A stretch of 64,000 bases of DNA from Arenicellales bacterium (lineage in GTDB: Bacteria > Pseudomonadota > Gammaproteobacteria > Arenicellales > JAJDZL01): the NCBI GenBank assembly GCA_965262855.1, contig OZ253563.1, positions 1,635,011-1,699,010 on the forward strand. The letters are read 5' to 3'. A model generated the notes under the pieces. It worked only from the letters and a program-made list of their open reading frames with translations, made no database searches and was not told the DNA's origin. This document shows positions 6,243 to 22,022 of this stretch, piece by piece (the stretch's first letter is position 1; every line of letters begins with the position of its first letter). The translations under genes and the position numbers were made by a program.

Positions 6243-7094
6243 CTAGCCAAATCGCCCGGTGATGTAGTCTTCCGTTAGCTGATTCTGCGGGTTGGTAAAT
6301 ATCTGACCAGTATCTCCTATCTCGACTAAGTCCCCAAGATTGAAATAGGCGGTTCTCTGCGATACTCGGGCTGCTTGCTGCATGGAATGTGTAACAATTA
6401 CAATCGAATACTGCGTTCTCAAATCGTCAATCAAGTCTTCAATTCTGGCAGTTGCAATTGGATCCAAAGAGGAGCATGGTTCATCCATGAGAATTACTTC
6501 AGGCTGAACTGCAATCGCTCGTGCGATACATAGGCGTTGCTGCTGACCACCCGATAATTCAGTTCCAGACTTGTGAATTCGATCCTCCACTTCGGAAAGC
6601 AATCCAACTTTCTGAAGGCAGGAATAGACGACTTCATCCGTTTCCGCCCGATCGCTCACCAGAGAGTGAAGTCTCGGACCGTATGCGACGTTGTCATAAA
6701 TCGACTTGGGAAAGGGATTTGGCTTCTGAAATACCATCCCGACCCTCGCTCGCAACTCCACCACATCCATGTCGCTGCTGTAAATATCTTTGCCGTCGAG
6801 TTTGATTGTGCCGGTAATCCGGCAACCGTCAATAATGTCGTTGATTCTATTCAGGCATCGCAGGAAGGTAGACTTTCCACAACCAGATGGGCCGATAATG
6901 GCCAGCACTTGGTTCGCTCGTATCGAAATGTTGACATTTTTGATGGCATGAGTGTCCGTGTAATAGACATCCACATTCTCAGCTGTCATGCGAAATTCGG
7001 AAACACTGTCTATCGATTCGCTGTTTGCAAATCCGGATGTATCAGTCCGCACAACAATCTTTGAGGATTCAGTAGTTACACTCGTTTCTAGCAT
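6243..7094 (-). CDS. pstB: Phosphate ABC transporter ATP-binding protein
   Basis: [41 protein letters not shown]; operon position. Confidence 0.97.
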
Positions 7095-7130
7095 CGTGAT
7101 TGTTCTCTACTGGCGAAGATGAAGTTGATT

Positions 7131-8423: not shown

Positions 8424-9807
8424 ATTGCTCACTATACTTACGAACGATGTATAACGCGGTGACATTGAGCAGGAGTGTTGCAACGAATAGTGTCAACCCC
8501 AAGGCAAACGCGGCAAGCGTCTTTGCGCTGTCAAATTCCTGATCGCCGACCAGCAATGTCACAATCTGAACGGTAACCGTAGTTACTGATTCGAAGGGGT
8601 TGGCGGTTAGCTTCGCCGCCAGTCCGGCAGCCATCAATACGATCATGGTTTCTCCAATTGCCCGCGAAACTGCTAGTAGCAGTGCCCCAACAATTCCCGG
8701 CAATGCCGCTGGAAAAACTACCTTTTTTATGGTCTCCGAGTGAGTCGCCCCACAAGCCAGGGAGGCTTCTCGTATTGACTGTGGCAGCGCAGTGATAACG
8801 TCATCAGTCAGCGAAGATACAAACGGGATAATCATGATTCCCATGACAACTCCGGCAGCAAGGGCGCTCTCGTGAGCAATTTCCAGTCCAAGTCCGGCAC
8901 CAATTTCATGCAACCAAGGTGCCACCACCAAGGCTGCAAAAAATCCGTATACGACGGTTGGCACACCTGCCAGAATCTCAAGTGCTGGTTTTGCGAATGC
9001 ACGCACTTTCGTGGTTGCGTATTCAGCCAGATAAATCGCTGATAGCAGTCCAACCGGAACCGCAACCGCCATTGCGACACCGGCAACTAGAATTGTTCCT
9101 GTAAAGAGCGGCACACTCCCAAACAGTCCCGACGAACCGACCTGATCCTCTCGGATAGCAATCTGCGGGCTCCATTCAAGACCAAATAAGAAGTCAGTCA
9201 AGGGGATTTTTCTGAAGAAATTGAGCGCCTCAAACAGCACCGACAGCACAATTCCCACAGTTGTAAAAATTGCAATTAGCGAACTGGCTAAAAGCATGAA
9301 TTTGATAATCGTCTCCGCGATGGGGCGCGCACGCAATTTATCGGAAATCAAAAGGGTGAATATGAATGCAGTAATGGCGCCCACCACCACTACAGCAGCA
9401 TTACGCAGGGTTTCGTTCAAGTCGACAAGGTGCTGAAAACGAGCCGCGGCACCCTGCAATGCATCAGAATTTTCCATATTCCCAAGTATGCCGGTCTGAG
9501 CTAGAATCTGAATCTGACTGACCAGCCACTCAATATCGACCTGCGACTTCGCTCGCATGTCGGGGAAAAATTCAGACATGACGATGCGCAAGATGATATT
9601 TTCATCAACGCTCAACCACAGGCCAAGCACAGCCATGGCCGGAATCGCAAACAGCATGGCTGCGACAATGCCATAATATTTTGGCGCAGAATGCAAATAG
9701 CGAATACCACCCAAGTTTTTTGCGATTCGCAAGGAACGCTGCTTCGCCCAAAAATAAAATAGCGAAGAAAACCCGAGCAGAATCAGTATCAAAGCCCAAG
9801 TACTCAT
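8416..9807 (-). CDS. pstC: Phosphate ABC transporter permease PstC
   Basis: EILAGVPTVVYG, SRAIGETMIV; N-terminal DUF3708-like extension. Confidence 0.95.
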   Translation of the reverse strand: MSTWALILILLGFSSLFYFWAKQRSLRIAKNLGGIRYLHSAPKYYGIVAAMLFAIPAMAVLGLWLSVDENIILRIVMSEFFPDMRAKSQVDIEWLVSQIQILAQTGILGNMENSDALQGAAARFQHLVDLNETLRNAAVVVVGAITAFIFTLLISDKLRARPIAETIIKFMLLASSLIAIFTTVGIVLSVLFEALNFFRKIPLTDFLFGLEWSPQIAIREDQVGSSGLFGSVPLFTGTILVAGVAMAVAVPVGLLSAIYLAEYATTKVRAFAKPALEILAGVPTVVYGFFAALVVAPWLHEIGAGLGLEIAHESALAAGVVMGIMIIPFVSSLTDDVITALPQSIREASLACGATHSETIKKVVFPAALPGIVGALLLAVSRAIGETMIVLMAAGLAAKLTANPFESVTTVTVQIVTLLVGDQEFDSAKTLAAFALGLTLFVATLLLNVTALYIVRKYSEQYD

Positions 9808-10145
9808 AGGTCTCCAAACATTGTTACTTAAACACTCCTTTTAGCAGACAATATGCAGGGAGGAATTGGCTACTCAATCGCTGGTATTCGCTTACCAAAG
9901 ACTGACCGGTCCAATTGAGCAAAACTCATTAGCTAAACGATTTGATCTGGCCCACAGAGCGAATTATCGAAATCCACTGTCTGCCACCCATCTCCGCACC
10001 CAAAAATGGTGCGAATACCGGAATACACCAGATAAGCATTTTCACAACCAAATGCGCCAATGCCAACTGGGCATATCAAATCACACGATCAGCCATCAGA
10101 ATCGATGGCACTATTTCATGAAACGAATGCGTATTGAACTCGAAC

Positions 10146-11222
10146 CTACTCGGAGGCGAGTTGAACAGTCGTTAAATTCATGGCAGCCACACTGAACTTG
10201 TTGCGTTCGACTTCCGGCATGGGAATCATTCCCTTGTCAACCAGGTAGCCGTCCTCACCCCAAGATCGATCACTGGTAAATTCCGAAATGTATTCCTTAA
10301 TACCTGGAATTAGATCGATATGTGCGGTTTTAATGTAAAAATACAGTGGCCGTGAAATTGCATAAGACCCTGTCGCGATGTTGTCGAACTCAGGAGCAAC
10401 TCCATCGACAATTGAACCTTGAACTTGGTCGGAATTCTGATCCAAAAAACTGAAGCCGAAAACACCAAGAGAGTCCTTGTCGGCAGTCAACTTCTGAACG
10501 ATCAGATTGTCATTTTCACCAACTTCAACCCAAGCGCCGTCTTCTCGAACACCATGACAAATTGACTTGTAGTGCTTCTTGTCGCTATTCTTGATAGCCT
10601 TGATCCATTTAAATGCCTTACATCCGCCTTCAAGTGCAAGCTCAGCAAAGGCATCTCGTGTGCCCGAAGTCGGAGGTGGCCCAAGTACGCGAATTACAAC
10701 ATCCGGCAGTTCAGAGTTCACGTCCTTCCAAGTCTTATAAGGATTCGGAATTAGTTTCTCTTCACCATTTGGGTCCGGAACGTTCTTTGCGAGTGCAAGA
10801 AAAATGTCCCGGCTTAAAAGACTAAACCGCTCCGCTTCGATCGAATTCGCTACGACGATACCGTCATAACCGAACTTGATCTCGACTATGTCATCAATAC
10901 CATTCCCGCCACAACGTTCAACTTCTGACTTTTTAATGCGTCGGGAAGCATTGGTGATATCAGGATGCTTGACCCCGATACCTGCACAGAACAGTTTCAA
11001 GCCGCCGCCGGAACCGGTCGATTCAATAATTGGGGTCCGATACTGCGAACTTGTTCCAAATCGCTCAGCAACCACAGTCGCGAATGGATACACCGTAGAT
11101 GACCCAACGATACTGATATAGTCTCTTTCGTTTGCTTGCGCAGTTGCCGAGAAAGACCCTAGCATTACTGCTAGAACAGTCAGGTAAACCCTGAGAATTG
11201 ACGACGAACTGATCATCTTCAT
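10146..11222 (-). CDS. pstS: Phosphate ABC transporter substrate-binding protein
   Basis: Signal peptide, GSSTVYPF, STGSGGG, GPPPTSGTRD, YAISRPLYFY. Confidence 0.95.
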   Translation of the reverse strand: MKMISSSSILRVYLTVLAVMLGSFSATAQANERDYISIVGSSTVYPFATVVAERFGTSSQYRTPIIESTGSGGGLKLFCAGIGVKHPDITNASRRIKKSEVERCGGNGIDDIVEIKFGYDGIVVANSIEAERFSLLSRDIFLALAKNVPDPNGEEKLIPNPYKTWKDVNSELPDVVIRVLGPPPTSGTRDAFAELALEGGCKAFKWIKAIKNSDKKHYKSICHGVREDGAWVEVGENDNLIVQKLTADKDSLGVFGFSFLDQNSDQVQGSIVDGVAPEFDNIATGSYAISRPLYFYIKTAHIDLIPGIKEYISEFTSDRSWGEDGYLVDKGMIPMPEVERNKFSVAAMNLTTVQLASE

Positions 11223-11295
11223 TCTCCATATTGAACACGTCGACCTAGATTAGGCCGTCAATGTAGGGTACAGAAACCTTGTGGTTTCGTGAACA

Positions 11296-11323
11296 AGTCT
11301 ATAGTAAAATTTTTATTTGTCAA
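11296..11323 (-). promoter_or_regulatory. Putative sigma70 promoter of pstS (TTGACA-16 nt-TAGACT)
   Basis: Minus strand reads TTGACA aataaaaattttacta TAGACT, ~75 nt upstream of the pstS ATG. Confidence 0.55.
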
Positions 11324-11355
11324 ATTCCTATTTAACTTTTTTTAAATAGGAATTT
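11322..11355. repeat. Perfect 14-bp inverted repeat in the pstS/phoU divergent intergenic region
   Basis: AAATTCCTATTTAA-cttttt-TTAAATAGGAATTT. Confidence 0.85.
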
Positions 11356-11556
11356 TGTAATTATTTCTTCAATTGCTATGGCAACAAGTTAGGCTCGTTT
11401 CCTGATCAGTTTACAGAATTAAGTAATGTAGTTTATTGTTATAATTGCAGTAAATATTGAGTCACAGAGCATAGCGGCTAAACCATCCGCTCCCACTCGA
11501 CGGTTTTCCAAAAATCAACCCCACTACATACAGCAGCCAGTAGTCAAGGAACCATA

Positions 11557-12249
11557 ATGATTGACGGGCATTACTCCGCAAAATACGATGTCGAGCTCGC
11601 AGAATTGGGAGAACTGACGCTCATGATGGGACGTCTAGTTGAAAAGCAGCTCAGAAATGCAATAAACGCATTGGTTAGAGGTGATCGAATGCTTGCTCGA
11701 CAAGTATCCGACGACGAACGTCTAGTTAATCAGCTAGAAGTGGAAATTGACAGCAAAAGCACAGAACTCCTCGCACGGCGGCAACCAATAGCCAGAGACC
11801 TTAGATTCGTGCTGATGATCATCAAAACCGTAAACGACTTAGAGCGAATGGGCGATGAAGTCAACCGCGTTGCATTGATGGGCAGCCGCGTCGTCGAGCG
11901 TCCGAGCGCCCCTCCAAACTACGATGATATTGAAGATATCGGCTTGCGTGTGCTGAAGCTATTGCAGGAAACTCTCAAAGCATTTGAACATACTGACGAT
12001 ACACAAGCGTTTGCATTGATCAGTAAGGACAAAAAAGTGGACAAGAAATTCAGAAATACGCTAAAACGTGTAAAAAAATGGATGATGGAAGAATCCGATT
12101 CAGTGCCGGATGCAATTGATATTCTGTGGGCGATTCGTTCTTTGGAACGAGTGGCCGACAGAACGTGCAACATCTGCGAGCATGTGATTTTCTGTGTGAA
12201 AGGCGAGGATATACGACACCTCGACATAGATCAATTAATGACTGACTAA
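11557..12249 (+). CDS. phoU: Phosphate signalling complex protein PhoU
   Basis: VNQLEVEID, QPIARDLR, DLERMGD, SLERVADRTCNICE. Confidence 0.95.
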   Translation: MIDGHYSAKYDVELAELGELTLMMGRLVEKQLRNAINALVRGDRMLARQVSDDERLVNQLEVEIDSKSTELLARRQPIARDLRFVLMIIKTVNDLERMGDEVNRVALMGSRVVERPSAPPNYDDIEDIGLRVLKLLQETLKAFEHTDDTQAFALISKDKKVDKKFRNTLKRVKKWMMEESDSVPDAIDILWAIRSLERVADRTCNICEHVIFCVKGEDIRHLDIDQLMTD

Positions 12250-13097
12250 TCAGGGTATCGAGTCTGACGGATCCATTCACCAACTGTCGTGACCAGCTCG
12301 TTCTCATAATCTTCGAAAAAATGATCCGGTCCTTCAATCTTTATCTGCATGGATTGAGGATTACCTGCTGATTCAATTTCCGATATCCGCCTTTCTGCAC
12401 CTTTAATCACCGCTGGATAGTCTTCACTGCCGTACACATCCAGTACCGGAATCGACATACGTTCAAGCGGAAATCTCTCAAGCATCGGCTGACCGTAGTC
12501 TGTGGCTTCCATGCCAATTCCTACGTACGCATCAATTGCGTTGTCGCCGAATTCTCCAATCCATGCCATAGTCATGTGTACCGAACAGCTGTGTGCCACG
12601 ACCGCGATCCACTGATATCCTTTTGACCGCAAGAAATCAATCCCTGCTTCAATTCTAGGAAAAGACTGAGGAATGATTTCAAGGTACTCATAGTATTTGG
12701 AATTTTTCGCCAGAACCGGCATCTGTAAAGAGAGTGTAGTTATGCCAAGCTCGCCGAAACCCTCGCGTAACGGCCCGGCAACCTGCACCCAGTCAGGATG
12801 AAAGCCTCTGCCATGAAGAAGAATAACTGCACCTTCAAAACTCGAAGCACTCGCTTCAGAATACAGCGATAGAAAATTACGTTTACCATCATTCAGGTAA
12901 ACCGCGTCGCCTTCGAATAGTCCAGCTTCCGCTTCTTGCGCCAGCCTCGCTTCTCGCTCATAGTCAGGCTGTCCGTCAGCCAACGAGATTGAATTGACCA
13001 GACTTCCGAACAGCAGGAGAAATATCCAGCCAAATACTGTTTTGATTGTCAAATTCCTATTTCTATCAAATCTAAATTCCACAATCACCCGTACCAT
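12246..13097 (-). CDS. Exported alpha/beta-hydrolase-fold protein, DUF3530-like
   Basis: Signal-like N-terminus, ILLHGRGFHPDW, AHS nucleophile elbow, PVLDVYG, DHFF. Confidence 0.7.
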   Translation of the reverse strand: MVRVIVEFRFDRNRNLTIKTVFGWIFLLLFGSLVNSISLADGQPDYEREARLAQEAEAGLFEGDAVYLNDGKRNFLSLYSEASASSFEGAVILLHGRGFHPDWVQVAGPLREGFGELGITTLSLQMPVLAKNSKYYEYLEIIPQSFPRIEAGIDFLRSKGYQWIAVVAHSCSVHMTMAWIGEFGDNAIDAYVGIGMEATDYGQPMLERFPLERMSIPVLDVYGSEDYPAVIKGAERRISEIESAGNPQSMQIKIEGPDHFFEDYENELVTTVGEWIRQTRYPD

Positions 13098-13126
13098 CCG
13101 TGAGATTTTGATATCTAGTGTATAGC

Positions 13127-13426
13127 TTAGCGCTGGTACGAGAATTCAGCTATGTACTCTTGGTCGTGATCCAATCGATCTATGCTGGCCATTCGAGAAT
13201 CAATCAGTTTATTCATGAAGTCCATGCACATGGACGCGAATGCTTTTGCGCGTTCCGAGTCATCGAAAAAATAGTCCGAATCAATGCAGCCGAATTGCTG
13301 GAAATTCTGTGCAAGCGAGACGCCTGCTTCCAAATTTGTACGCAGCAGTTGCTGATCTTCGGCCAGCAAGCGCTGATGTCTGATTTCTTCAATCAAATTT
13401 TTCCGCACTACGACTCTGTAGAACAT
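13127..13426 (-). CDS. Hypothetical protein (99 aa)
   Basis: Co-directional, 29-60 bp gaps to neighbours, protein-like composition. Confidence 0.65.
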   Translation of the reverse strand: MFYRVVVRKNLIEEIRHQRLLAEDQQLLRTNLEAGVSLAQNFQQFGCIDSDYFFDDSERAKAFASMCMDFMNKLIDSRMASIDRLDHDQEYIAEFSYQR

Positions 13427-13486
13427 GATCCTTCTACCTGTACGCTTGGTATTCCAATATCCTCGTATTCGTTTTTGAACCTAATT

Positions 13487-13732
13487 CTATGGTGCATATC
13501 CCATGCAGTTTCCAAAACAGTATGGAGCATTGTCCGATCGTTTGCATCCACACATGTAGAATTCACCGGATATGGGTGCGATAAACTTAATTGGTTTGAA
13601 GTCTGTGCCCCGATGAGTGCCATCACACCACGGCTGCGAACTACTCAGGCCGCAACTGCACCAAGCATAAAGTACACCTGACTCCACTTGCACTACATAA
13701 GGCGCTTTCTGCGAACAAAGCGGCAGTTCCAT
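13487..13732 (-). CDS. Tandem CDGSH iron-sulfur domain protein (MiNT/CISD3-like), second motif variant
   Basis: WCSCGLSSSQPWCDGTH canonical; second motif CGCKRSDNAPYCFGNC; ATG 1 nt after the upstream TGA. Confidence 0.9.
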   Translation of the reverse strand: MELPLCSQKAPYVVQVESGVLYAWCSCGLSSSQPWCDGTHRGTDFKPIKFIAPISGEFYMCGCKRSDNAPYCFGNCMGYAP

Positions 13733-13733
13733 A

Positions 13734-14012
13734 TCAATCTTGCGCAATATTCAAATTTAGAACGGGATAAACGGGCATTCCATTGCAGTCCCGGCCTTTA
13801 CCCACTACCTGCCCATTATCCAACATATACCACTCTTCAATATTTTGCTCGGGGCCTGGCCAAGGAGCAAATAGTTCACTGTGCGATGAACAAGGCTCTC
13901 CGGAGGTAAGTTTTATCGCTGTAACTCGCTGATTCCTTAACTTGTACGCAGCTGTGTCGCGATACGCCGCATCTTCCGTTAAATTCGGTAAAACGTCCTT
14001 AAGTTCAGGCAA
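13734..14012 (-). CDS. Hypothetical protein (92 aa)
   Basis: Operonic spacing (12 bp and 1 bp); WPGPEQNIEEWYMLDNG segment. Confidence 0.7.
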   Translation of the reverse strand: MPELKDVLPNLTEDAAYRDTAAYKLRNQRVTAIKLTSGEPCSSHSELFAPWPGPEQNIEEWYMLDNGQVVGKGRDCNGMPVYPVLNLNIAQD

Positions 14013-14024
14013 CAGGTGTGAACA

Positions 14025-14831
14025 CTATTCCGGCTTAATGTCTATGGCTCGAAATCCGCCAAACCCATCTTCGACAATTTGATACTTAACTCTTTGCCCT
14101 CGATGCAATTCGCCAAGACCACTGGATTCGACAGCGCTTTTGTGGATAAAAACGTTTCGGCCGCTTTCATTGTCAGTGATATATCCGCCGAAAGGGTTTC
14201 TCAGAGCGTTATATACCGCCACTTCGCCTGCCGAAGCACCGGGCTTCAAACCTTTGGTCTGTTTCTTGTCCATAGCCGTGGAACCACCCACATCCAAATG
14301 CGACAAGTCCTCTCCAGTGAACTTCGACCAGATTTGCAGGGCATAGTCTTCAATATTGCCATCTGATGTATCGAACTCCACATCGGGATCGATGTGATTG
14401 ACCTGCGGATAGAGCAAGCGGCTGAGTTTTTCATCGTCTTGATCACGCTGACTGACGCCCTCTCCAATCTGTCTAGTTCGCCCTCCGCCCTCTTCTTGCC
14501 GATGTTCCCATCGTTCATTTCTGATCTTGTCATCGGACTTCAAATGCACAAAATACACGCCTTCGATACCTTGCAGAACAGCATCCATGAATGCGCTCTC
14601 AAGAATCAAAACCGGGTCTGGCCATGAAGTCATTGACCTTGTTTCTTGGTCCAACTTGCGGTGGTAGTCCAGATCAATGTCTGCGCCGCCGGTTGACTTC
14701 GATACCAATGCCTGGGTTGTAACAGCTTCTCCGCGACTTGCCAGCTTGTAACCGGTAAGACGCGATATAGCTCTCGCCACATCCGATTTCAGGCAACATG
14801 TCTTTCCATAAATTGCAATTACTTGACTCAT
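14025..14831 (-). CDS. Cytidylate-kinase-like P-loop domain fused to a C-terminal cold-shock domain
   Basis: VIAIYGKTCCLKSDVARAIS (degenerate NMP-kinase P-loop), RDQDD, DVEFDTS; C-terminal FGGYITD..NVFIHKSAVESSGLGELHRGQRVKYQIV (RNP1/RNP2-like CSD). Confidence 0.75.
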   Translation of the reverse strand: MSQVIAIYGKTCCLKSDVARAISRLTGYKLASRGEAVTTQALVSKSTGGADIDLDYHRKLDQETRSMTSWPDPVLILESAFMDAVLQGIEGVYFVHLKSDDKIRNERWEHRQEEGGGRTRQIGEGVSQRDQDDEKLSRLLYPQVNHIDPDVEFDTSDGNIEDYALQIWSKFTGEDLSHLDVGGSTAMDKKQTKGLKPGASAGEVAVYNALRNPFGGYITDNESGRNVFIHKSAVESSGLGELHRGQRVKYQIVEDGFGGFRAIDIKPE

Positions 14832-14840
14832 GTGACAATC

Positions 14841-15983
14841 TCAACTTTTATGATCATTTTTACTCATGCTTGACAGTAGTCCGGATAACGAGTGCATACG
14901 TTTTTCGGCAAGAATTCTCTTTTGTGAATTCATCATTCTTCCAATGGGTGTAGCACAGGAATGCACGAGTCTGAATACCGGTACGTATACGATGAATGCC
15001 AACGACCCAAACACGTGAAAGTACCACATCGGCGTATGTAACGCAGCAAGCACGTGCCCGCTTTCTGAGGTCATCCTTGCAATCGTCCAACCGACGAATG
15101 AATAGCAACTGCCGGCCGGGAAACCATCAATAACAAGCCTTGCTGCTTCGACAACAAAACCAGTCACTACTACGAGAAACAGGAACAGTACGGACGGTGT
15201 ATCAGCAAACTTCTTTTCTTCTGACTTGCCAACCTGAATCCGCCAAAGAAACGAAAGCAGACACCCGACCAGCACCAAAATACCAAAGAAATCGAAGGCA
15301 AAATCGAAGGCAACTCGAACTGGGTGTCCGTCAATTTCCCAGATGTCGACATAGCCGAAAGCCGGAATGCCTTCCCGTATAAATACCGCAATGATTTCAA
15401 CACCGAACAACAATGCAAATCCCCAAAATATCAAGGTATGCCGCAACCAGCGAAATCCGCTCACCGAAAACAGGCTGGAATGCATCACGACATCTTCCAG
15501 AAATGTCTTGCGCATCAATGCCGGTTCGGCATTTTCTCTCGAAATGTAGCGGTGATAACGATCCCAGCTCGGGCGATTCTTCTGATAGAGTATCCGATAC
15601 ATTCCGATATCGAAAAGGACCAGTGCTGCGAGAGCTGTTGGGCCGAACAGCAACCACTTCATTTCGACTTGGCCAGCCAATCCCTCCATGACAAAGTGTC
15701 CAGAGAGATCGAACACACCGATTACATACATCCAGGCACCGACAAGAAACAACCATCTCATCGCACCAGTTAGGGTTTCGGCTGAAAATTTCCGCGTAAA
15801 TACCAGCAATCCCAGCGCTGCAACGCCCCCTGTCAAGAGCACTACGGAAACAAGAAGCAAAGCATACCCTAGCCCGGCACCGTACTGACCGGACAACTGC
15901 AATACGAAAACCGTAATCCCCACTATCAATGGCAAAACTACGCGTCTACGGCTACGGCGAAAATCCGTTGCGGCTTTCTCCAT
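14841..15983 (-). CDS. NarI/DsrM/HdrE-like membrane cytochrome b with extra N-terminal TM helices
   Basis: Polytopic; WLRHTLIFWGF, TGFVVEAAR, WYFHVFG..FRLVH His pattern; RBS GAGGA. Confidence 0.75.
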   Translation of the reverse strand: MEKAATDFRRSRRRVVLPLIVGITVFVLQLSGQYGAGLGYALLLVSVVLLTGGVAALGLLVFTRKFSAETLTGAMRWLFLVGAWMYVIGVFDLSGHFVMEGLAGQVEMKWLLFGPTALAALVLFDIGMYRILYQKNRPSWDRYHRYISRENAEPALMRKTFLEDVVMHSSLFSVSGFRWLRHTLIFWGFALLFGVEIIAVFIREGIPAFGYVDIWEIDGHPVRVAFDFAFDFFGILVLVGCLLSFLWRIQVGKSEEKKFADTPSVLFLFLVVVTGFVVEAARLVIDGFPAGSCYSFVGWTIARMTSESGHVLAALHTPMWYFHVFGSLAFIVYVPVFRLVHSCATPIGRMMNSQKRILAEKRMHSLSGLLSSMSKNDHKS

Positions 15984-16051
15984 AGTCCTCCTATACCACT
16001 AATCCTCGAGACGGCAGTCGCTTGACGACACCATGATCAAATCTTCGTATT

Positions 16052-16903
16052 TCAGCCTGCAGCGGCTGACTCCAACTTGGCAGCCTGTTCAGCTGCTCGC
16101 TGTGCATCCACGGCAAGCATTGCTCCATGCAATGCTGGATCACCGCCTTTAATATCTCGAAATTCCTGAACGCATGCCTTGGCTTTCTCTACCGCGACTA
16201 GAGCATCTGCTCCATATGCATCCGCTCCAATCTTGTCACACCACGCCTGACTGATTGGCGCTCCGCCTACAAATACTTTAACGTCCCCGCGCAGTCCTTC
16301 CGACTGAATATGCTTGATAGTTTCCCATTGCATGTTCATGGTTGTGGTCAACAAGGCGGAAAAACCGACAATCTGCGGCTTGTGCTCGCGTATTGCGGCA
16401 ATGAAATCTTCTGGCGGAACCGTCACACCGAGATCAATGACGGTAAAGCCCGCGGCTTCCAGCATCATGGCAACAATCTTCTTGCCGATGTCGTGCAAGT
16501 CCCCTTGCACAGTGCCAACAACTACCGTACCGATTTCATCTGATTTTTCCGCTACGATCAGCGGTTTCAGAATTCCTAATGCGGAGTGCATGCACTTCGC
16601 CGACATCATGACTTCCGGCAGAAAGTATTCATCCATCTTGAATCGACGGCCAACCTCAGCGATTCCTGTCGCCATAGGGCCTGCAACAAGCGTCCTTGGC
16701 GAAATTTCCGCTTCCAATGCTGGATGAATCAAATCCGATGTTTCTTCGTGTTCGCCATCTATGATGTTCCACTCGATCTCGTGAAACAGTTCCTTGATCT
16801 CCTGTGGAGCATCCGTCCAGCGGTCAGTTTCTAAAGAGTCTTCAAAGTCATACTGAAGATCTTCGAGATCCCATTCCTTTTCAGTTTCGATTATTAACGG
16901 CAT
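16052..16903 (-). CDS. Methyltransferase cognate corrinoid (cobalamin-binding) protein with acidic N-terminal extension
   Basis: Cap domain EVGRRFKMDEYFLPEVMMSA; GTVQGDLHDIGK (DxHxxG), SALLTTT, VFVGGAP; alternative TTG start at 16927. Confidence 0.92.
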   Translation of the reverse strand: MPLIIETEKEWDLEDLQYDFEDSLETDRWTDAPQEIKELFHEIEWNIIDGEHEETSDLIHPALEAEISPRTLVAGPMATGIAEVGRRFKMDEYFLPEVMMSAKCMHSALGILKPLIVAEKSDEIGTVVVGTVQGDLHDIGKKIVAMMLEAAGFTVIDLGVTVPPEDFIAAIREHKPQIVGFSALLTTTMNMQWETIKHIQSEGLRGDVKVFVGGAPISQAWCDKIGADAYGADALVAVEKAKACVQEFRDIKGGDPALHGAMLAVDAQRAAEQAAKLESAAAG

Positions 16904-16927
16904 ATCGCATTCTATAAGTAAAAACAA

Positions 16928-18310
16928 TCAAGCTGCGCGCGCGGCATTGCGGTCAGGCCGCCTTCGACGTTTGCGCTCTCCAGTCCAAGGTTCATAACCC
17001 TCGCCAATGTCAGCGCCCGGGGGTGGTTCGCTCGGCAAAGGATACACGCCGTAAGTTCTCGCCTCATCAATCATCGCAAGCACATTCTGCGTTGGTACAT
17101 CATGCTCCAGCCGATGAGATGAACTCAGCAGATAACCGCCACCGTGCCCCATTTCCCAGATTCGCTGCCGAACTTCGGATCGCACATCCTCTACACTGCC
17201 CCACGGCAGTGTTTCCTGCACGTCGATTCCACCATAAAAAAACATTTCCTGCCCCAACTGTCGCTTTTTTGCCGCAGGATTCGAGTGACGAGCAACTTTC
17301 GGCGGCAAACTATCGTAACCGTCCACGCCCGACTCAATCAAACCTCGCATGAAGGGTTCCGGTATCGCTCCACAACTATGAAACTGAATTTTACCCAGTG
17401 GGTTCTTTTTTAGGTAATATTCCTTAATTTCATTAAATGCACGCACATAGTGCGGCTTTACCTGCCGCTCGAACATTTTCAGTGACAGGAACGCGGTTTT
17501 TTCACTGGCCAAGTCTTCCGGACTCAAGCGCATCCAGTCGAGATACTCTCCACATTCGTCGATAATCGCCTTGTTGAACTCGATTTCAATATCCGTTAAT
17601 CGAGTCAACATTGCTTCAAGAAATTTGGGAGATTCAATAAAATCTGAAAATATTTTGGCATAGCCGACCATATATTTCGCTTGCTCGAAGATTCCACCCC
17701 GGCCGCCTTGGCCCATTAACGCGAAAGGCGTATCATCATGTATGAATTTGCAGTATTCCCGCAACGTCATACCAGGAATTGGAGAATCCTCCCAGCATGA
17801 TTCATCCCACGGATCTGGCCAAGGAAACTCATCGAGAATTCGCATGCCTTCTTCAAGGGGTGCACTCGTCGCGTGAAATAGTGGATATCCGATCATTTCG
17901 TAGTAGCCGCCTTGTTCGTGTGGCGTCCACTTTCGAATCACTCCCCATTCGTCCACGTTAATATCCATGTTCGGTGGCGGAATACCCATATCGAAAGGAA
18001 TTTCGTCAAATGCAATTTCACGAAATCCTGGTGAACCTCCAGGCGTTCCAATCGCAATTCGCATAAAGTCCACATCCAGTTTCTGCGCTAGATCCAACTC
18101 GAAACTCACATCTGTGGTCCATGTTGTCGAACCCGTACGGTAGTCTTTGGGATCGGCCTTGTAATCCATACCGATACCCTTGCGTAAATTCTGATATCCC
18201 TCGATTGTGCCCCAGAGACCAACCGGGACAAGATCTGGTTCGCGCAAATGAAGCGCGTCAATCACTCTTTTTCGTTGCGGCGGAACCGCATTGCCAATAA
18301 TCTCAGCCAT
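16928..18310 (-). CDS. Uroporphyrinogen decarboxylase-family / MtaA-CmuA-like (putative Zn) methyltransferase
   Basis: REPDLVPV, DEWGV, WPDP, FHSCG (HxC), GGIDVQ, GGGYLLSSSH; adjacent to the corrinoid protein. Confidence 0.88.
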   Translation of the reverse strand: MAEIIGNAVPPQRKRVIDALHLREPDLVPVGLWGTIEGYQNLRKGIGMDYKADPKDYRTGSTTWTTDVSFELDLAQKLDVDFMRIAIGTPGGSPGFREIAFDEIPFDMGIPPPNMDINVDEWGVIRKWTPHEQGGYYEMIGYPLFHATSAPLEEGMRILDEFPWPDPWDESCWEDSPIPGMTLREYCKFIHDDTPFALMGQGGRGGIFEQAKYMVGYAKIFSDFIESPKFLEAMLTRLTDIEIEFNKAIIDECGEYLDWMRLSPEDLASEKTAFLSLKMFERQVKPHYVRAFNEIKEYYLKKNPLGKIQFHSCGAIPEPFMRGLIESGVDGYDSLPPKVARHSNPAAKKRQLGQEMFFYGGIDVQETLPWGSVEDVRSEVRQRIWEMGHGGGYLLSSSHRLEHDVPTQNVLAMIDEARTYGVYPLPSEPPPGADIGEGYEPWTGERKRRRRPDRNAARAA

Positions 18311-18357
18311 CGTTAATCTCCGTCAACGATTGAACAATATTAAAATCTTGAATCTGT

Positions 18358-18912
18358 TTATGAATTGGGCGCAAATCTCGATGCCGCATCCATCACTATG
18401 CCTGGAAATCCCTGCGCGGATAGTCGTTTAGCCGCATTTTCGCGATTCACTGTCGCCAGTTCCGACATCGGTCCCGATACGATCGCCCCCGTTGGACAGA
18501 TTTCCTCGCAGGCACGCGGCATATCCAACGGACGCTCCTTGCCGGGTGTCTGACAGAAGTTGCATTTTTCCATCTTACCTGCAGTTGCACTCAGCTGTGG
18601 AGCATTGAATGGACAAGCCCAAGTACAGAATCCGCAACCAATACAGGTGTTCTGATCGACAACAACGATGCCATCCTCTACTCTTTTGGTAATCGCATTG
18701 ACAGGACAGGCAGTGCGACAAGGTGCATCTCCACAATGCATGCATGCCATTGAGACATTCATAGCCGTCACATTGGGAAACGTTCCCGACTCGATCTTTA
18801 CAACTTCCCTCCAGCGAGGTCCGACTTCGATCTCATTCCAGGATTTACAGGCAATTTCACAAGCATGACACTTCACGCACCGTTTGTGATCAAAATAAAA
18901 TCCATATTGCAT
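18358..18912 (-). CDS. DmsB/PsrB-type 4x[4Fe-4S] electron-transfer subunit
   Basis: CVKCHACEIAC, CMHCGDAPCRTACP, CIGCGFCTWACP, KCNFC..CEEICP; RBS GAGAGGA before ATG 18912. Confidence 0.93.
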   Translation of the reverse strand: MQYGFYFDHKRCVKCHACEIACKSWNEIEVGPRWREVVKIESGTFPNVTAMNVSMACMHCGDAPCRTACPVNAITKRVEDGIVVVDQNTCIGCGFCTWACPFNAPQLSATAGKMEKCNFCQTPGKERPLDMPRACEEICPTGAIVSGPMSELATVNRENAAKRLSAQGFPGIVMDAASRFAPNS

Positions 18913-18931
18913 GACTTTTCCTCTCGCTGAT

Positions 18932-21040
18932 TTAAGCTGCACGTACGCGAACTTTGCACTCGTTATAACAATTCGCGCCCGTGATCGGGCTGGTGTGAGT
19001 ATCCATCAGATTGTTGGAGTGTGCTCCGTGTCCCTTGGCCGTGGAGCCCATAGCCCAATGACCAAAGCCATGACCATGCCGAACACTCACGCAACCGGGT
19101 ACCAGGCCCTCAACAACCTTGGCTTTAATTTCAATACTGTCTTTCGGTGACTCGATTACCACAATGCTATCATCCTGGATGCCGTATCGGGCAGCATCTG
19201 AACTGTTTATTTCGACCCAGTTCTCTCCGCACACTTCCATTAGGTAAGGGTTGTTCTGAGTCACGATGTTACAGTGCATGCTCAACTTAGAATGAGTCAG
19301 CTGTAGAGGATAGTCTTTGTCAGGAAGCACCGACCGCTCGGTATACTCAGGATAACCGTTAAATCCAGCCTCTTCATAACTGCTGGAATATATCTCGATC
19401 TTTCCGGAGGGTGTCGGCAACCCTTCCGGCACTCGGTTATAGCGAATCTCCCCGGCCCAGAATCCTTTGTCCTTCAGTTCATCCAGAGTCATGGGAATAT
19501 TCTCCATCATCAGTTCACCCCAGTCCTCCCATTTTTCATACGGGAAATACTCGCCCCATCCCATTTTCTCGGCAATTCCTTTGGCAATTTCGTAAGGCGG
19601 TTTCGATTCCCCTACCGCTGGAACGACTGGTTGGCACAGAATGACTTGGGGGCCAAGCCACATGCCCTGACGAATTTCAGCCTGTTCGTAGAATGAGGTT
19701 TCCGGCAAAACAATATCGCATTCAAGTGCCGTTTCACTCATATAAAGCTCGCAGGCGACAGCCAGATCCAAGTGTTTGAACATTTCAAGAACTCGGTCTC
19801 GATTCGGATCGCTCATTACTGGGTTTGTAGCGTGAACAAACAGTGCTTTGACTGGATACGGATTTCCATCAATAACCGCTTCCGGCAGTTTGGAGTTCGG
19901 AAGGTCCGGGGCCAAAGGGTAACCCATGGCGACGTGAAGTGCTCCTTTGGTTGGTGCAGTTCTCGCCTCCTCCGGAATATTGACCGGCAACCCTAGGGGC
20001 GCCCAGTCCTTGAGATTAAGATTTCCCGGTTTGTCTACTTCTCCACAAATTGCGTTCAGCGCATAGCAGGCTCTTCCGGCATCCGCACCGTTGGTGTAAT
20101 ATCCGGATCCTTTGAAAATAGCTGACATTGCCGGCTTGGTTGTAGCAAACTCTCGGCTTAGCCGTTCAATTGTACCTTTGCCTACCCCGCAGATCGGTGC
20201 CGCCCACTCAGGTGTATAGCCATTTTCCTGGAGGTGTTCGCGAAATCCGTCAAAACCGTTGCAGTAGTTATTCGTGAAATCTACATCGTACATTCGGTTG
20301 CTGACTATGCTGTGGCACATCGCGAGCGCCAAGGCACCGTCGGTGCCTGGTTTGATGGGTACCCACTCGTCTGCCTTTTGTGCGGTCTCGGTAAAATTCG
20401 GATCGACCACTACCAGCTTGCACCCTTCCTTTTGCGCTTCAATGAGGGCTCTGCTCTCCCACAGCCCTTGATTTGCGCCTAGATTGTTCATGCCCCAGAG
20501 CATGACATATTTTGAATTGGCAAAATCATGCATTGGAAAAACATGCCCGAATAAAGTCAGGCAGGCCGACCTGCGATCCTGCTCACAGCCTGATGTGTGG
20601 GCATACAAATTCGGCGAACCATAAAGTTCGCCGAGCAGATGCCGATAAAACTGGGTATTGGGATCGTGGTGACAAGTCAGAGCCACCGCTTCAGGACCGA
20701 AATCTTTGGCAATGGAAGTTAGTTTATCAGCAATGAACGAGTAGGCTTCGTCCCATGAAATACGCTTGAAGCGCCCCGCTTCTCCTTTGGGATTGGTTCG
20801 CAGCATCGGATACTTCAGACGATCAGGATCTACTGTCACATGCCAACTCGCCATCCCTTTTGCGCACCTGGACCCGATATTGTTAGGGGATTCAGGATTC
20901 CCTTTGTGATAGACAATTTTATTGTCGCGTACAAATACCTCCGTTGGACATTGCCAAGGACAAGTGTAACAAAAACTTTTGACTACCTGCGCCCCTTTAA
21001 TTTCAGCAAGACGCGAACCCAAATCGTTTACAGCGGCCAT
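18932..21040 (-). CDS. Mo/W-bisPGD oxidoreductase catalytic subunit, PsrA/PhsA-like, no Tat leader
   Basis: CYTCPWQC..CAKG FS0 motif, DRLKYPM, GSPNLYAHTSGC (putative Cys Mo ligand), CDIVLPET, C-terminal molybdopterin-dinucleotide domain; no RRxFLK. Confidence 0.92.
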   Translation of the reverse strand: MAAVNDLGSRLAEIKGAQVVKSFCYTCPWQCPTEVFVRDNKIVYHKGNPESPNNIGSRCAKGMASWHVTVDPDRLKYPMLRTNPKGEAGRFKRISWDEAYSFIADKLTSIAKDFGPEAVALTCHHDPNTQFYRHLLGELYGSPNLYAHTSGCEQDRRSACLTLFGHVFPMHDFANSKYVMLWGMNNLGANQGLWESRALIEAQKEGCKLVVVDPNFTETAQKADEWVPIKPGTDGALALAMCHSIVSNRMYDVDFTNNYCNGFDGFREHLQENGYTPEWAAPICGVGKGTIERLSREFATTKPAMSAIFKGSGYYTNGADAGRACYALNAICGEVDKPGNLNLKDWAPLGLPVNIPEEARTAPTKGALHVAMGYPLAPDLPNSKLPEAVIDGNPYPVKALFVHATNPVMSDPNRDRVLEMFKHLDLAVACELYMSETALECDIVLPETSFYEQAEIRQGMWLGPQVILCQPVVPAVGESKPPYEIAKGIAEKMGWGEYFPYEKWEDWGELMMENIPMTLDELKDKGFWAGEIRYNRVPEGLPTPSGKIEIYSSSYEEAGFNGYPEYTERSVLPDKDYPLQLTHSKLSMHCNIVTQNNPYLMEVCGENWVEINSSDAARYGIQDDSIVVIESPKDSIEIKAKVVEGLVPGCVSVRHGHGFGHWAMGSTAKGHGAHSNNLMDTHTSPITGANCYNECKVRVRAA

Positions 21041-21395
21041 AATTTCTCCTCTCGCCCCGATCGTTCATTCAGATAAATTCAATATTTTCGTTTTGTATAT
21101 TCTAAATATATCGAAACGCATCGCTAATTCTATTGAATTTGTGTTCGTTATGTAAAATTTGAACCTATCTCATACATCCAGTCTCCATTTTTCTCCGACG
21201 CAAAACAATTTAATCGCACCCTGCATTAGTTACGACTTAAAATTTGATTCAATACTCCCATCCCTATTGATGTCATATGTACTGTCAAGTTAATCTTATC
21301 CGTAGTAGTGCACAGCACGAACCATCTCGCGGATTTATTCACAAATACGCTGTGGTACGGCTCTTCTAAGAAATACCTAGAATACTACAACCTTC

Positions 21396-22022
21396 ATGAA
21401 CAGTTTCAGCTTTGAAACAACTCCGCAGCATTTGGCTGGTGCAATTCGATTGCTGCAACACATACCTGCACTGTCTATTCCAACATTGTCGGACAAATTT
21501 CGGCTCGCGCTTCTCAAGGAAGCTCGGCAGTATCCACTTCGTGAAATATCCAATTATGTCGGCAGCGGTCGAAATAAAGTACGTCAGGAAATGTTTCTGC
21601 AAGATCAATTGAATCTTCATGGGCTTTTTGGCCAACTGAAGGAGGAATTCCAAACCTTGTTCGACCAATCCGTGGCTGGAACGGAATTCTTTAGCGACGG
21701 AGTCATCTTCAATGATTGGATAATCCAAAAGTACGAGCCCGGAAGCGCTGGTATCACTCCCCATCGAGACCGAACCGACTATCGTCATATGATTTGCCTC
21801 TTCGTTCTAGCCGGTCACGGAAGATTTTTTGTCTCCGATGACCGTGAGAAAACCAATCAGCGCGAGATTGCCAATTTACCTGGAGATGTTATTTTGATGC
21901 CTGGCCCTGGGTTCAAATATCTTGAACAGAGACCGTTTCACTATCTTGAGGACATCACAGAAGAACGCTGGATATTCGGGCTTCGTCACGACGAAAGCAA
22001 ATTGAATGAAAAACCAAATTAG
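21396..22022 (+). CDS. 2OG-Fe(II) dioxygenase superfamily protein (AlkB-like)
   Basis: IQKYEPG..GITPHRD (HxD), PFHYL, RWIFGLR. Confidence 0.7.
   Translation: MNSFSFETTPQHLAGAIRLLQHIPALSIPTLSDKFRLALLKEARQYPLREISNYVGSGRNKVRQEMFLQDQLNLHGLFGQLKEEFQTLFDQSVAGTEFFSDGVIFNDWIIQKYEPGSAGITPHRDRTDYRHMICLFVLAGHGRFFVSDDREKTNQREIANLPGDVILMPGPGFKYLEQRPFHYLEDITEERWIFGLRHDESKLNEKPN

Follow-up and report, generated by a model that had tools for sequence, protein, structure and literature searches.

A proteobacterial gene cluster joining a molybdoenzyme to a corrinoid methyltransferase, with a possible role in methylated-arsenic turnover

The 64-kb window considered here (the whole stretch of DNA that was analyzed, to which all positions refer) stems from a metagenome-assembled genome (MAG) of the Arenicellales and contains a block of ten co-directional genes, in which a molybdenum (Mo) enzyme and its iron–sulfur (FeS) partner are found together with a methyltransferase of the UroD superfamily (UroD460), a corrinoid protein, and a NarI-like membrane protein. 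The Mo/FeS pair is linked to the UroD460–corrinoid pair in at least five gene orders in Gamma-, Alpha-, and Betaproteobacteria and in many metagenomes, and the Mo orthologues of other taxa (73–81% identical) adjoin the arsenic genes aioBA, arsD-arsA, arsR, and arsC as well as a gene for an MIP channel. The block is read here, with a probability that we put at about 0.45, as the Arenicellales version of a widespread proteobacterial cluster for the turnover of methylated arsenic, most likely by stepwise demethylation.

Composition and conservation of the block

The ten open reading frames (ORFs), all on the minus strand and running from 21040 to 12246, were recovered at the coordinates at which a first-pass annotation of this DNA had placed them, and Pfam and NCBIfam profile searches of the ten proteins bear out its description of ten co-directional genes with gaps of 68 bp or less and with the following domain content (lengths in amino acids, aa):

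18932..21040, minus strand: catalytic subunit of the Mo or tungsten (W) bis(pyranopterin guanine dinucleotide) type (Mo/W-bisPGD), 702 aa; Molybdop_Fe4S4, Molybdopterin, and Molydop_binding domains
18358..18942, minus strand: four-cluster [4Fe-4S] electron-transfer subunit, DmsB/PsrB type; 16 Cys, Fer4_11 and related matches
16928..18310, minus strand: UroD460, predicted UroD-superfamily, MtaA-like corrinoid methyltransferase, 460 aa; Pfam URO-D, 67.5 bits
16052..16927, minus strand: corrinoid (B12-binding) methyl-carrier protein; B12-binding_2 and B12-binding domains, GDLHDIGK motif
14841..15983, minus strand: polytopic NarI-like membrane protein, 380 aa; Nitrate_red_gam, 23.1 bits, borderline
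14025..14831, minus strand: fusion of a degenerate P-loop (AAA_18-like) domain and a cold-shock domain (CSD); CSD 37.7 bits, AAA_18 below cut-off
13734..14012, minus strand: small conserved protein, 92 aa; no Pfam or NCBIfam match
13487..13747, minus strand: two-motif CDGSH-type [2Fe-2S] protein; zf-CDGSH, 53 bits
13127..13426, minus strand: small conserved protein, 99 aa, the last of the conserved core; no Pfam or NCBIfam match
12246..13097, minus strand: DUF3530 alpha/beta-hydrolase-like protein with an N-terminal signal or anchor; Pfam DUF3530, 88 bits

The intergenic gaps, in gene order, amount to an overlap or 19, 47, 0 or 24, 68, 9, 12, an overlap or 1, 60, and 29 nt, and the true start of the FeS subunit is probably the ATG at 18912, with those of the corrinoid and CDGSH proteins probably at 16903 and 13732, respectively.

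Conservation was followed in a genome scan with UroD460 as the query, which gave 45 loci, all of them from MAGs, against which the ten block proteins were compared by tblastn, and in a metagenome scan with the Mo subunit, which gave 79 loci at 71–81% identity (one at 58%) from several collections, including a TARA Oceans scaffold, and was followed by a panel tblastn. A plasmid collection, searched with UroD460 and the Mo subunit for a cultured or annotated carrier, gave none. The nearest UroD460 loci (98% identity) are Arenicellales chromosomes, and the other hosts are unclassified Gammaproteobacteria, Acidiferrobacterales, Kiloniellales, Limibaculum, Paracoccaceae, Ramlibacter, and one betaproteobacterium. 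The full order of the block is kept in about 28 Arenicellales loci, and genes 1–9 stand in the same order in unrelated metagenome contigs, which argues that the block is not a chance juxtaposition and answers in the affirmative the question of conservation that the first-pass annotation had left to gene-neighborhood comparison. A core composed of UroD460, the corrinoid protein, the NarI-like protein, the CDGSH protein, and the 99-aa protein is present in nearly all loci (70–98% identity in the three proteobacterial classes). Across the 45 genome loci, where UroD460 is 74–98% and the corrinoid protein 72–98% identical, the corrinoid gene directly follows UroD460 in every case, the NarI-like gene is present in 44, and the CDGSH gene in 43.

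The position of the Mo/FeS genes relative to this core varies. They are directly adjacent to the UroD–corrinoid pair in the Arenicellales and in loci L053, L056, L060, and L062–L065; they are separated from it by arsR-arsD-arsA and by livHMGF with a substrate-binding protein gene in the alphaproteobacterial loci L033–L036, L048, L052, and L087; by the liv genes only in L057, L058, L100–L102, L107, L109, and L110; and they lie downstream of the core in L082 and L089 and divergent from it in L070, L076, L095, and L105. The intervening segment of the alphaproteobacterial loci, in which Mo/FeS stands about 9 kb upstream of UroD, encodes a hemopexin-like protein, an ArsR-type regulator, ArsD, ArsA, and a LivHMGF-type importer with its binding protein. 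The first of these, a 231-aa protein with four hemopexin-like repeats (YFFKxxxYxRW-type) and only a faint match to Hemopexin, always follows the Mo–FeS pair in the alphaproteobacterial clusters (L048 1556–2251; L033–L036). Because the linkage survives rearrangement, a shared pathway for the Mo/FeS pair and the methyl-transfer core is indicated, and it is highly probable that the two act together; the first-pass annotation, which had suggested a coupled redox and methyl-transfer pathway, is supported in this respect.

All three Pfam domains of the Mo subunit score above their cut-offs, and the cysteines of its FS0 cluster (C24/C27/C31/C59) are conserved in the homologues. The N-terminus of the subunit (MAAVNDLGSRLAEIKG...) has no twin-arginine (RR) motif, and the N-termini of the family, which are not conserved, likewise have none; since a twin-arginine signal is missing, the subunit is predicted from its sequence to be cytoplasmic. 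Cys152, in the conserved motif HTSGCEQDRR, aligns with the Mo-ligand Cys of PsrA (2vpw) and ArrA (6cz7) and is conserved in 95% of 102 homologues. The best NCBIfam match is PhsA with 425 bits, below the cut-off of 694, and the scores for ArrA (186 against 1600), TtrA (103 against 1750), and a DmsA subfamily (276 against 778) are also below cut-off, with the NarG model reaching 83 bits only; in the PDB, Thermus PsrA (283 bits) is followed by acetylene hydratase and then by ArrA. With orthologues that are 73–98% identical across three proteobacterial classes, the subunit is predicted to be Psr/Phs-like, yet to belong to an orthologous family of its own. The family scores rule out an identity as SoeA, formate dehydrogenase, ArrA/ArxA, or acetylene hydratase, and formate dehydrogenase is also ruled out by the active site, which has Glu and not His after the ligand Cys. 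A paper taken up as a possible description of the Mo enzyme as an alternative arsenite oxidase (PMC6620896) was set aside, since it deals with SoeABC instead. In the FeS subunit, the 16 Cys conserved in 92 homologues correspond to four [4Fe-4S] clusters, and the DmsB model gives 154 bits, below its cut-off. The two subunits are fused in one polypeptide of 904–916 aa in some marine metagenome proteins (P0196, P0198, and P0202; L089 8100–10800), of which the 916-aa P0198 may be the L089 protein.

UroD460 shows only weak NCBIfam matches to MtaA and CmuA models, at 26–36 bits against cut-offs of 235–400 (TIGR01463, 26.3 against 235; NF040654, 26.9 against 400; both far below), and a sequence search of the PDB gave no match. 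Its AlphaFold2 model, with a predicted local distance difference test (pLDDT) score of 75, is matched by Foldseek to UroD and to the Methanosarcina mazei methyltransferase 4ay7/4ay8 (MtaA) with target-normalized template-modeling (TM) scores of 0.68–0.70, so that the UroD (beta/alpha)8 fold is predicted for it. H311 and C313, which form an H-x-C motif, are invariant, and the third position expected of an H-x-C...C zinc motif is occupied not by a conserved Cys but by H399, conserved at 98%. Clustering at 50% identity reduces the family to one full-length representative, its next relatives being 49%, 40%, and then about 35% identical and about 385 aa long, and UroD460 is thus, to judge by its sequence, a discrete and tightly conserved family of predicted corrinoid methyltransferases. 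Two further Cys, C187 (98%) and C253 (94%), are conserved in UroD460 and are missing from the paralogue UroD389; a site for As(III) formed by C187, C253, and C313 was considered and is unlikely, given this absence and the location of C187 and C253 inside predicted helices rather than at strand ends. The corrinoid protein is closest to the MtgC, MtbC, and pyl_corrinoid models, with 194–201 bits, all just below cut-off (193.8 against 215.3 for TIGR02370, a narrow miss), and its GDLHDIGK (DxHxxG) motif is invariant in 65 homologues.

The NarI-like protein matches Nitrate_red_gam of Pfam at 23.1 bits against a cut-off of 22.9 and QmoC models weakly, and has no match in a sequence search of the PDB. 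Its AlphaFold2 model (pLDDT 87) is an all-helical bundle composed of four extra N-terminal helices and a NarI-like module, for which the best Foldseek matches are the cytochrome b module of Mycobacterium smegmatis EtfD and Escherichia coli NarI, with probabilities of 0.98–1.0 and TM scores of only 0.3–0.5. Three of its His residues are invariant (H182, H323, and H341), and two are conserved at about 90% (H168 and H220); the 18-residue spacing of H323 and H341 equals that of H187 and H205 in NarI (NarI numbering). On this model, the product is probably a di-heme cytochrome b with a link to the quinone pool. The NarI-like gene accompanies UroD460 and the corrinoid gene also where no Mo/FeS gene lies within 10 kb (L026–L032, L039, and L046) and does not stand next to Mo/FeS in L050 and similar loci, and for this reason the protein is not to be read simply as the anchor of the Mo enzyme, although a connection of the FeS subunit to quinone may well run through it. 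Of the earlier proposal of a NarI-like probable membrane anchor, the NarI-like assignment stands, and the anchor role needs qualification.

The remaining products are smaller or more variable in distribution. In the CDGSH protein, the first motif is of the canonical type with three Cys and one His and the second is all-Cys; seven Cys residues (C30, C32, C41, C66, C68, C77, and C81) show no variation among 52 homologues, with at least 90% conservation of the motif His45. The AAA_18-like/CSD fusion is conserved in Gammaproteobacteria and several metagenome loci and was not detected in the alphaproteobacterial loci; its degenerate Walker A sequence (GKTCCLKS), with a Cys12 in the P-loop region conserved at 98%, and its C-terminal CSD together speak for a sensing or regulatory role more than for a kinase. 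The 92-aa protein is homologous to residues 1–70 of a 395-aa ORF in L048, and in other taxa a gene for a LysR regulator comes immediately after that of the 92-aa protein or the two are read as one fused ORF; in L132, the homologue is a separate 89-aa gene that overlaps the LysR gene. In loci of the Gamma-, Alpha-, and Betaproteobacteria, the gene after CDGSH encodes a homologue of the 99-aa protein (33–95% identity). The DUF3530 gene, by contrast with this core, is found in Arenicellales loci only and is missing from some of them. It was rejected as a system member on this ground, so that what remains of its earlier inclusion in the operon is the shared direction of transcription; it is co-directional with the conserved system but probably lies outside it.

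Arsenic genes and the direction of methyl transfer

The arsenic genes beside the Mo orthologues are well defined by score and by residue. Against TIGR02693, with its cut-off of 359, AioA reaches 999.6 bits, and against the Alcaligenes faecalis arsenite oxidase 1g8k it reaches 797 bits; AioB is above its cut-off and carries a Tat signal, ArsA reaches 788 bits against 650, and ArsD 104 against 90. Cys12/13/18 of ArsD, the metalloid-binding Cys triad of ArsA, and the C-terminal CCx5C of ArsR are all present, and some loci also encode an ArsC of the low-molecular-weight phosphatase (LMWP) type. At least one arsenic gene occurs in 38 of the 79 metagenome loci; where at least 17 kb of sequence is available (20 loci), a methyl-transfer gene is present in 19, an arsenic gene in 11, and both in 11. 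The alpha- and betaproteobacterial genome loci likewise carry arsenic genes. The arrangement closest to that of the window is found in L053, L060, L063, and L064, in which aioB, aioA, a pentapeptide-repeat gene, and the MIP gene are followed by Mo, FeS, UroD, corrinoid, and NarI-like genes in the window's own order, and in several loci the arsenic genes share the orientation of the Mo gene at a distance of no more than a few hundred bases. Taken together, we lean, if not strongly, toward a pathway that concerns arsenic.

Other genes were seen in the same surroundings. The pentapeptide-repeat protein (HetL/Qnr-like) is conserved between the aioA and MIP genes (L050 7954–8913, with homologues in about 30 loci). 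In L050, one arsenic island holds after Mo–FeS (12916–14499) a type II haloacid-dehalogenase-family hydrolase (161 bits against 125) and a 239-aa orphan, a combination that could hint at C–As or C–X cleavage of an acetate-type side chain, and beside that island (15536–17855) lies a family 4 glycosyltransferase (GT4) gene with a DinB_2/FGE-sulfatase (EgtB-like) partner, a pair reminiscent of ergothioneine- or selenoneine-type biosynthesis.

Further recurrent partners bear on the direction in which the methyl group would move. They comprise a second set of UroD (389 aa), corrinoid (238 aa), RACo, CobW, and GntR genes, a pterin-binding methyltransferase (PF00809), a protein like methylenetetrahydrofolate reductase (MTHFR), a Liv-type ABC importer, and, directly upstream of Mo–FeS in about 12 loci, a homocysteine methyltransferase like betaine–homocysteine methyltransferase (BHMT; NF005718, 444 bits against 338). 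Because the BHMT-like, pterin-binding, and MTHFR-like proteins are methyl acceptors, demethylation of an imported substrate is favored over methylation, although demethylation as such is a tentative proposition that we would place somewhat below even odds. The predicted topology fits a demethylation scheme, with Mo/FeS in the cytoplasm (no Tat signal), AioB in the periplasm (Tat signal), and an MIP channel encoded between them.

In the Challenger scheme, the methyl-transfer steps of arsenic alternate with two-electron redox steps. Gene context suggests that the cluster may run this scheme backwards. UroD460 would move a methyl group from a pentavalent methylarsenical to the Co(I) of the corrinoid protein, leaving a trivalent arsenical, candidate substrates being dimethylarsinate, methylarsonate, trimethylarsine oxide, and arsenobetaine; the methyl cation would be taken by a nucleophile, either the Co(I)-corrinoid or, in loci with the BHMT-like enzyme, a homocysteine thiolate. 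The cytoplasmic Mo/FeS enzyme would perform the two-electron arsenic redox step between methyl transfers and exchange its electrons with the quinone pool via the NarI-like cytochrome b, while the CDGSH and small proteins may serve electron transfer or corrinoid maintenance. In the fuller clusters, the Liv-type ABC transporter would import the substrate, RACo would re-activate the corrinoid protein, and the methyl group would pass to tetrahydrofolate via the pterin-binding methyltransferase or to homocysteine via the BHMT-like enzyme. The final arsenite would leave through the MIP channel or by ArsDA-assisted efflux and be oxidized by the periplasmic AioBA. Of all this, the window would encode only the redox and first-methyl-transfer core, namely UroD460 and the corrinoid protein, Mo/FeS with the cytochrome b, and the CDGSH and small proteins. 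In its complete form, a corrinoid- and Mo-dependent "reverse Challenger" pathway of aerobic Proteobacteria, including these Arenicellales, in which the methyl groups of organoarsenicals go to tetrahydrofolate or methionine, arsenic is cycled by redox between the steps, and arsenite goes to AioBA, is doubtful.

Methylarsenic conversions control the speciation and toxicity of arsenic in rice paddies and marine food webs, and ArsI acts on trivalent mono-substituted arsenicals only. To our knowledge, no genes have been assigned to the removal of methyl groups from dimethylarsinate, trimethylarsine oxide, and arsenobetaine by microbes of oxic soils and seawater, and none were found in the literature. 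The cluster gives concrete candidates in the form of a cytoplasmic Mo enzyme, corrinoid methyltransferase families, an importer, and arsenite-disposal genes. If the proposed pathway holds, it would supply the missing genes for aerobic demethylation of di- and trimethylated arsenic, make methylarsenic a one-carbon and energy source, bring a metalloid substrate into aerobic cobalamin-dependent methyl transfer, give the Psr/Arr group of molybdoenzymes a new functional clade, and tie the availability of B12 and Mo to arsenic cycling. A precedent for modular cobalamin methyltransferases functioning in aerobic marine bacteria exists (PMC12478193). In methanogens, a link has been drawn between corrinoid methyltransferases and the demethylation of dimethylarsenic (DMAs; bioRxiv 10.64898/2026.08.27.747368), and microbial demethylation of arsenobetaine to dimethylarsinoylacetate is documented in references cited in bioRxiv 10.1101/2024.05.21.594793; genes of the present kind are named in neither of these two bioRxiv sources.

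Several points weigh against the arsenic demethylation proposal. By tblastn, the 64-kb window has no homologue of RACo or of a pterin- or homocysteine-binding second methyltransferase, nor of Aio, ArsA/D/C/R, MIP, or the Liv ABC importer, and within 10 kb no Arenicellales locus carries an arsenic gene. The arsenic reading of the window's operon therefore rests on orthology (about 80% identity for Mo, 68–79% for UroD460) to loci with arsenic genes, and the case is one of guilt by association throughout. The large-genome Gammaproteobacteria (L026–L032, L039, and L046) carry the UroD/corrinoid/cytochrome b core with no Mo/FeS or arsenic gene within 10 kb, so that the methyl-transfer core may not be arsenic-specific. 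The substrate-binding protein of the cluster matches only generic Leu/Ile/Val-type binders (best 3lop) with no informative ligand. NarI-type anchors classically pass quinol electrons into a cytoplasmic reductase, and by this analogy the topology would fit a reductase better than the oxidase role that the demethylation scheme needs. Lastly, we know of no purified enzyme for which methyl transfer from arsenic to Co(I) has been shown.

One rival is a non-arsenical substrate, which was the reading of the first-pass annotation and in which the cluster would act on some other small methylated molecule (methyl-sulfur, methyl-selenium, a methylated amine oxide, or an onium compound), the Mo enzyme would be a sulfur-, selenium-, or N-oxide or polysulfide-type reductase, and the arsenic genes would be mere stress or genomic-island neighbors. 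The absence of nearby arsenic genes in the Arenicellales and large-genome gammaproteobacterial loci agrees with this, as do the closeness of the Mo subunit to PhsA/PsrA, the H-x-C metal motif typical of the thiol-directed MtaA/MtsA enzymes, and the proposal of methyl-sulfur or methyl-selenium substrates for the related mlp clusters of anaerobes (PMC10418091). What makes it unlikely is that in 130 loci no gene for sulfur, sulfur-oxyanion, selenium, dimethyl sulfoxide (DMSO), dimethyl sulfide (DMS), trimethylamine N-oxide (TMAO), or aromatic-catabolic metabolism and no dehydroxylase gene recurs with the cluster, which speaks against the methyl-sulfur and methoxy-aromatic or dehydroxylation substrates proposed earlier; instead, aioBA, MIP, arsDA, arsR, and arsC recur in several unrelated arrangements, and As(III)-type ArsR regulators lie inside the cluster. 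Arsenic had not been considered in the first-pass annotation, its nearest idea having been a methylation of chalcogens.

The same arsenic linkage would agree with the forward direction of the Challenger scheme, a corrinoid-dependent methylation in which methyl-tetrahydrofolate charges the corrinoid protein, UroD460 methylates As(III), and the quinol-fed NarI-like/FeS/Mo chain reduces methyl-As(V), with volatile or exportable methylarsenicals as products. Reductases classically pair a NarI-type anchor with a Mo enzyme that faces the cytoplasm, the pterin-binding methyltransferase and MTHFR-like genes could supply methyl groups, and methylcobalamin is able to methylate arsenite non-enzymatically. 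However, the BHMT-like enzyme upstream of Mo–FeS in about 12 loci methylates homocysteine and cannot donate to arsenic, the conserved ABC importer is left with no obvious role, and AioBA with an outward arsenite channel fits the disposal of arsenite and not its consumption; forward methylation is accordingly a distinctly weaker candidate.

Still less probable is a model in which Mo/FeS, the NarI-like protein, and the CDGSH protein act neither on the methyl substrate nor on its product and instead form an electron supply that keeps the corrinoid as Co(I), replacing the ATP-dependent RACo that is missing from the Arenicellales operon. In many other taxa, RACo is encoded between the small protein and the CDGSH gene, and the genes for the cytochrome b and the CDGSH protein keep closer company with the corrinoid genes than with Mo/FeS, both of which would suit such a role. 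Against this, reduction of Co(II) to Co(I) at quinol potentials needs an input of energy, potentials in the quinol and As(III) range being far too positive, Mo/FeS co-occurs with RACo in many loci (L052, L058, L063, L082, and L092), and it stands with aioBA and the BHMT-like gene and no corrinoid gene in range in L050, L071, and L074. Finally, that the ten genes are merely adjacent, as two or three unrelated transcription units with no common pathway, is very improbable, since at least five rearrangements have left their linkage intact in three proteobacterial classes and dozens of metagenomes and the gaps are short or overlapping, even though the promoter and terminator scans are uninformative and DUF3530 is lineage-specific.

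Transcription signals and flanking genes in the window

Two features lie upstream of the block:

21127..21156, minus strand: best sigma-70-like promoter match of the region, 10/12 matches, 87 nt upstream of the Mo gene start
21396..22022, plus strand: divergent 208-aa protein at an Arenicellales-conserved position; no Pfam or NCBIfam family

The promoter match is weak evidence, as the total of sigma-70-like sites is no higher than in shuffled sequence. No terminator-like site was found in any intergenic gap of the block (the scan counts equal those of shuffled sequence), and a search around the operon for molybdenum cofactor (Moco), cobalamin, S-adenosylmethionine (SAM), and tetrahydrofolate (THF) riboswitches gave only two sub-threshold chance matches. 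The divergent 208-aa protein, which has no meaningful PDB match and no family on record, has copies that are 58–98% identical at the same position in nearly all Arenicellales loci and nowhere else, and it could be a lineage-specific accessory protein or regulator. A GITPHRD (HxD-like) motif in its sequence hints at a cupin or 2-oxoglutarate (2OG)-oxygenase fold.

On one flank, the block is bordered by pstSCAB-phoU; on the other, the 208-aa orphan is followed by a CMD-family gene, a metZ-like gene, and then an island like an integrative and conjugative element (ICE). The complete pstS-pstC-pstA-pstB set with a convergent phoU (6243–12249) abuts the block, an adjacency that is kept across the Arenicellales, and this proximity of phosphate/arsenate transport genes to an arsenic-linked operon could be meaningful or a coincidence. 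The ICE- or genomic-island-like region past the metZ-like gene (24756–45000) encodes ParA, DUF2857, DDE transposases, a YhgA-like transposase, and an ArdC-N/zincin anti-restriction protein, together with a type IV pilus/secretion set (TcpQ, secretin, PilO, T2SSE, and T2SSF), and its GC content is 0.54–0.57 at 38–44 kb against about 0.45 elsewhere in the window. Within it, a 624-aa ORF (29747–31621), at a local GC peak of 0.55, is an unusual fusion of an N-terminal DruA (Druantia defense) domain with DDE_Tnp_1_assoc and DDE_Tnp_1. Near the start of the window (1080–2828, minus strand), a 582-aa protein combines Schlafen AlbA_2 and HATPase_c_4 domains, a type common in defense or regulatory contexts.

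Comparison with known systems

The literature on corrinoid proteins with CDGSH, on Arenicellales, arsenic, and arsenobetaine, and on aioA with UroD yielded no publication describing the cluster, in line with the view of the first-pass annotation that no characterized operon combines a molybdoenzyme with a methyl-transfer pair of this kind. It thus appears that neither the Mo, UroD460, and cytochrome b families nor their association with arsenic genes has been described before, although all the components come from known superfamilies. Even if the arsenic substrate should prove wrong, the linkage of UroD460, the corrinoid protein, the cytochrome b, and the CDGSH protein defines an unstudied membrane-coupled corrinoid system.

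On the redox side, the Psr/Phs/Arr enzymes (Thermus PsrABC, Salmonella PhsABC, and Shewanella ArrAB) share with the window's enzyme a three-domain Mo-bisPGD subunit with FS0 and a Cys ligand of Mo as well as a four-cluster FeS partner, and the H-[ST]-S-x-C motif around the ligand Cys of ArrA resembles that of the window's Mo subunit. Unlike them, the window's enzyme has no Tat signal, scores far below the curated cut-offs, and is encoded among methyltransferase genes; nor does its operon hold the NrfD-type anchor of PsrC/PhsC, the sole membrane partner there being the NarI-like cytochrome b. In its architecture, the system recalls NarGHI, which joins a Mo subunit on the cytoplasmic side to a four-cluster FeS subunit and a di-heme membrane subunit of the NarI fold. 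The Mo subunit of the window nevertheless belongs to another clade, with Cys and not Asp as the ligand, the membrane protein has four extra helices, and its gene comes after the methyltransferase genes and also occurs without nearby Mo/FeS.

On the methyl-transfer side, the MtaABC and MtsAB systems, CmuAB of chloromethane users, and the MtvABC/Odm O-demethylases likewise place a UroD-fold methyltransferase beside a DxHxxG corrinoid protein, and the RACo, pterin-binding second methyltransferase, and MTHFR-like gene of the fuller clusters recall cmuA-cmuB-metF. UroD460 differs from these UroD-family methylotrophic systems in being a separate family, about 35% identical to typical relatives, and in being coupled to the cytochrome b and CDGSH genes in nearly all loci and often to the Mo enzyme and arsenic genes. 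The split methionine synthase/MtgBCD glycine-betaine demethylase of aerobic marine Alphaproteobacteria (PMC12478193) has separate corrinoid, PF00809, and PF02574 proteins and a RamA/RACo-type activase, module types that are also present in the extended cluster; in contrast, its methyltransferase is of the MttB family (PF06253), and it has no Mo enzyme, cytochrome b, CDGSH, or arsenic gene. The type 1 mlp clusters described by Kountz and Balskus (PMC10418091) are likewise widespread and uncharacterized, combine MtaA-like proteins, a corrinoid protein, and an activase while lacking a tetrahydrofolate methyltransferase, and have been proposed, from their context, to act on a metalloid or chalcogen methyl substrate. 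They differ in occurring in obligate anaerobes, mostly Firmicutes, in having two or three Mlp paralogues (Mlp2, Mlp3), and in having no link to Mo or arsenic, whereas the window has one UroD-family gene and no activase, and the hosts of the present cluster are Proteobacteria in which aioBA and, at one locus, genes for a cbb3 oxidase are also found. Finally, the known arsenic enzymes ArsM (a SAM methyltransferase), ArsI (a C–As lyase), and ArsH (a methylarsenite oxidase) also interconvert methylated and inorganic arsenic with redox between the methyl steps, but they have no sequence relationship to the present proteins, in which a corrinoid and Mo would take the place of SAM, Fe(II)/O2, or flavin.

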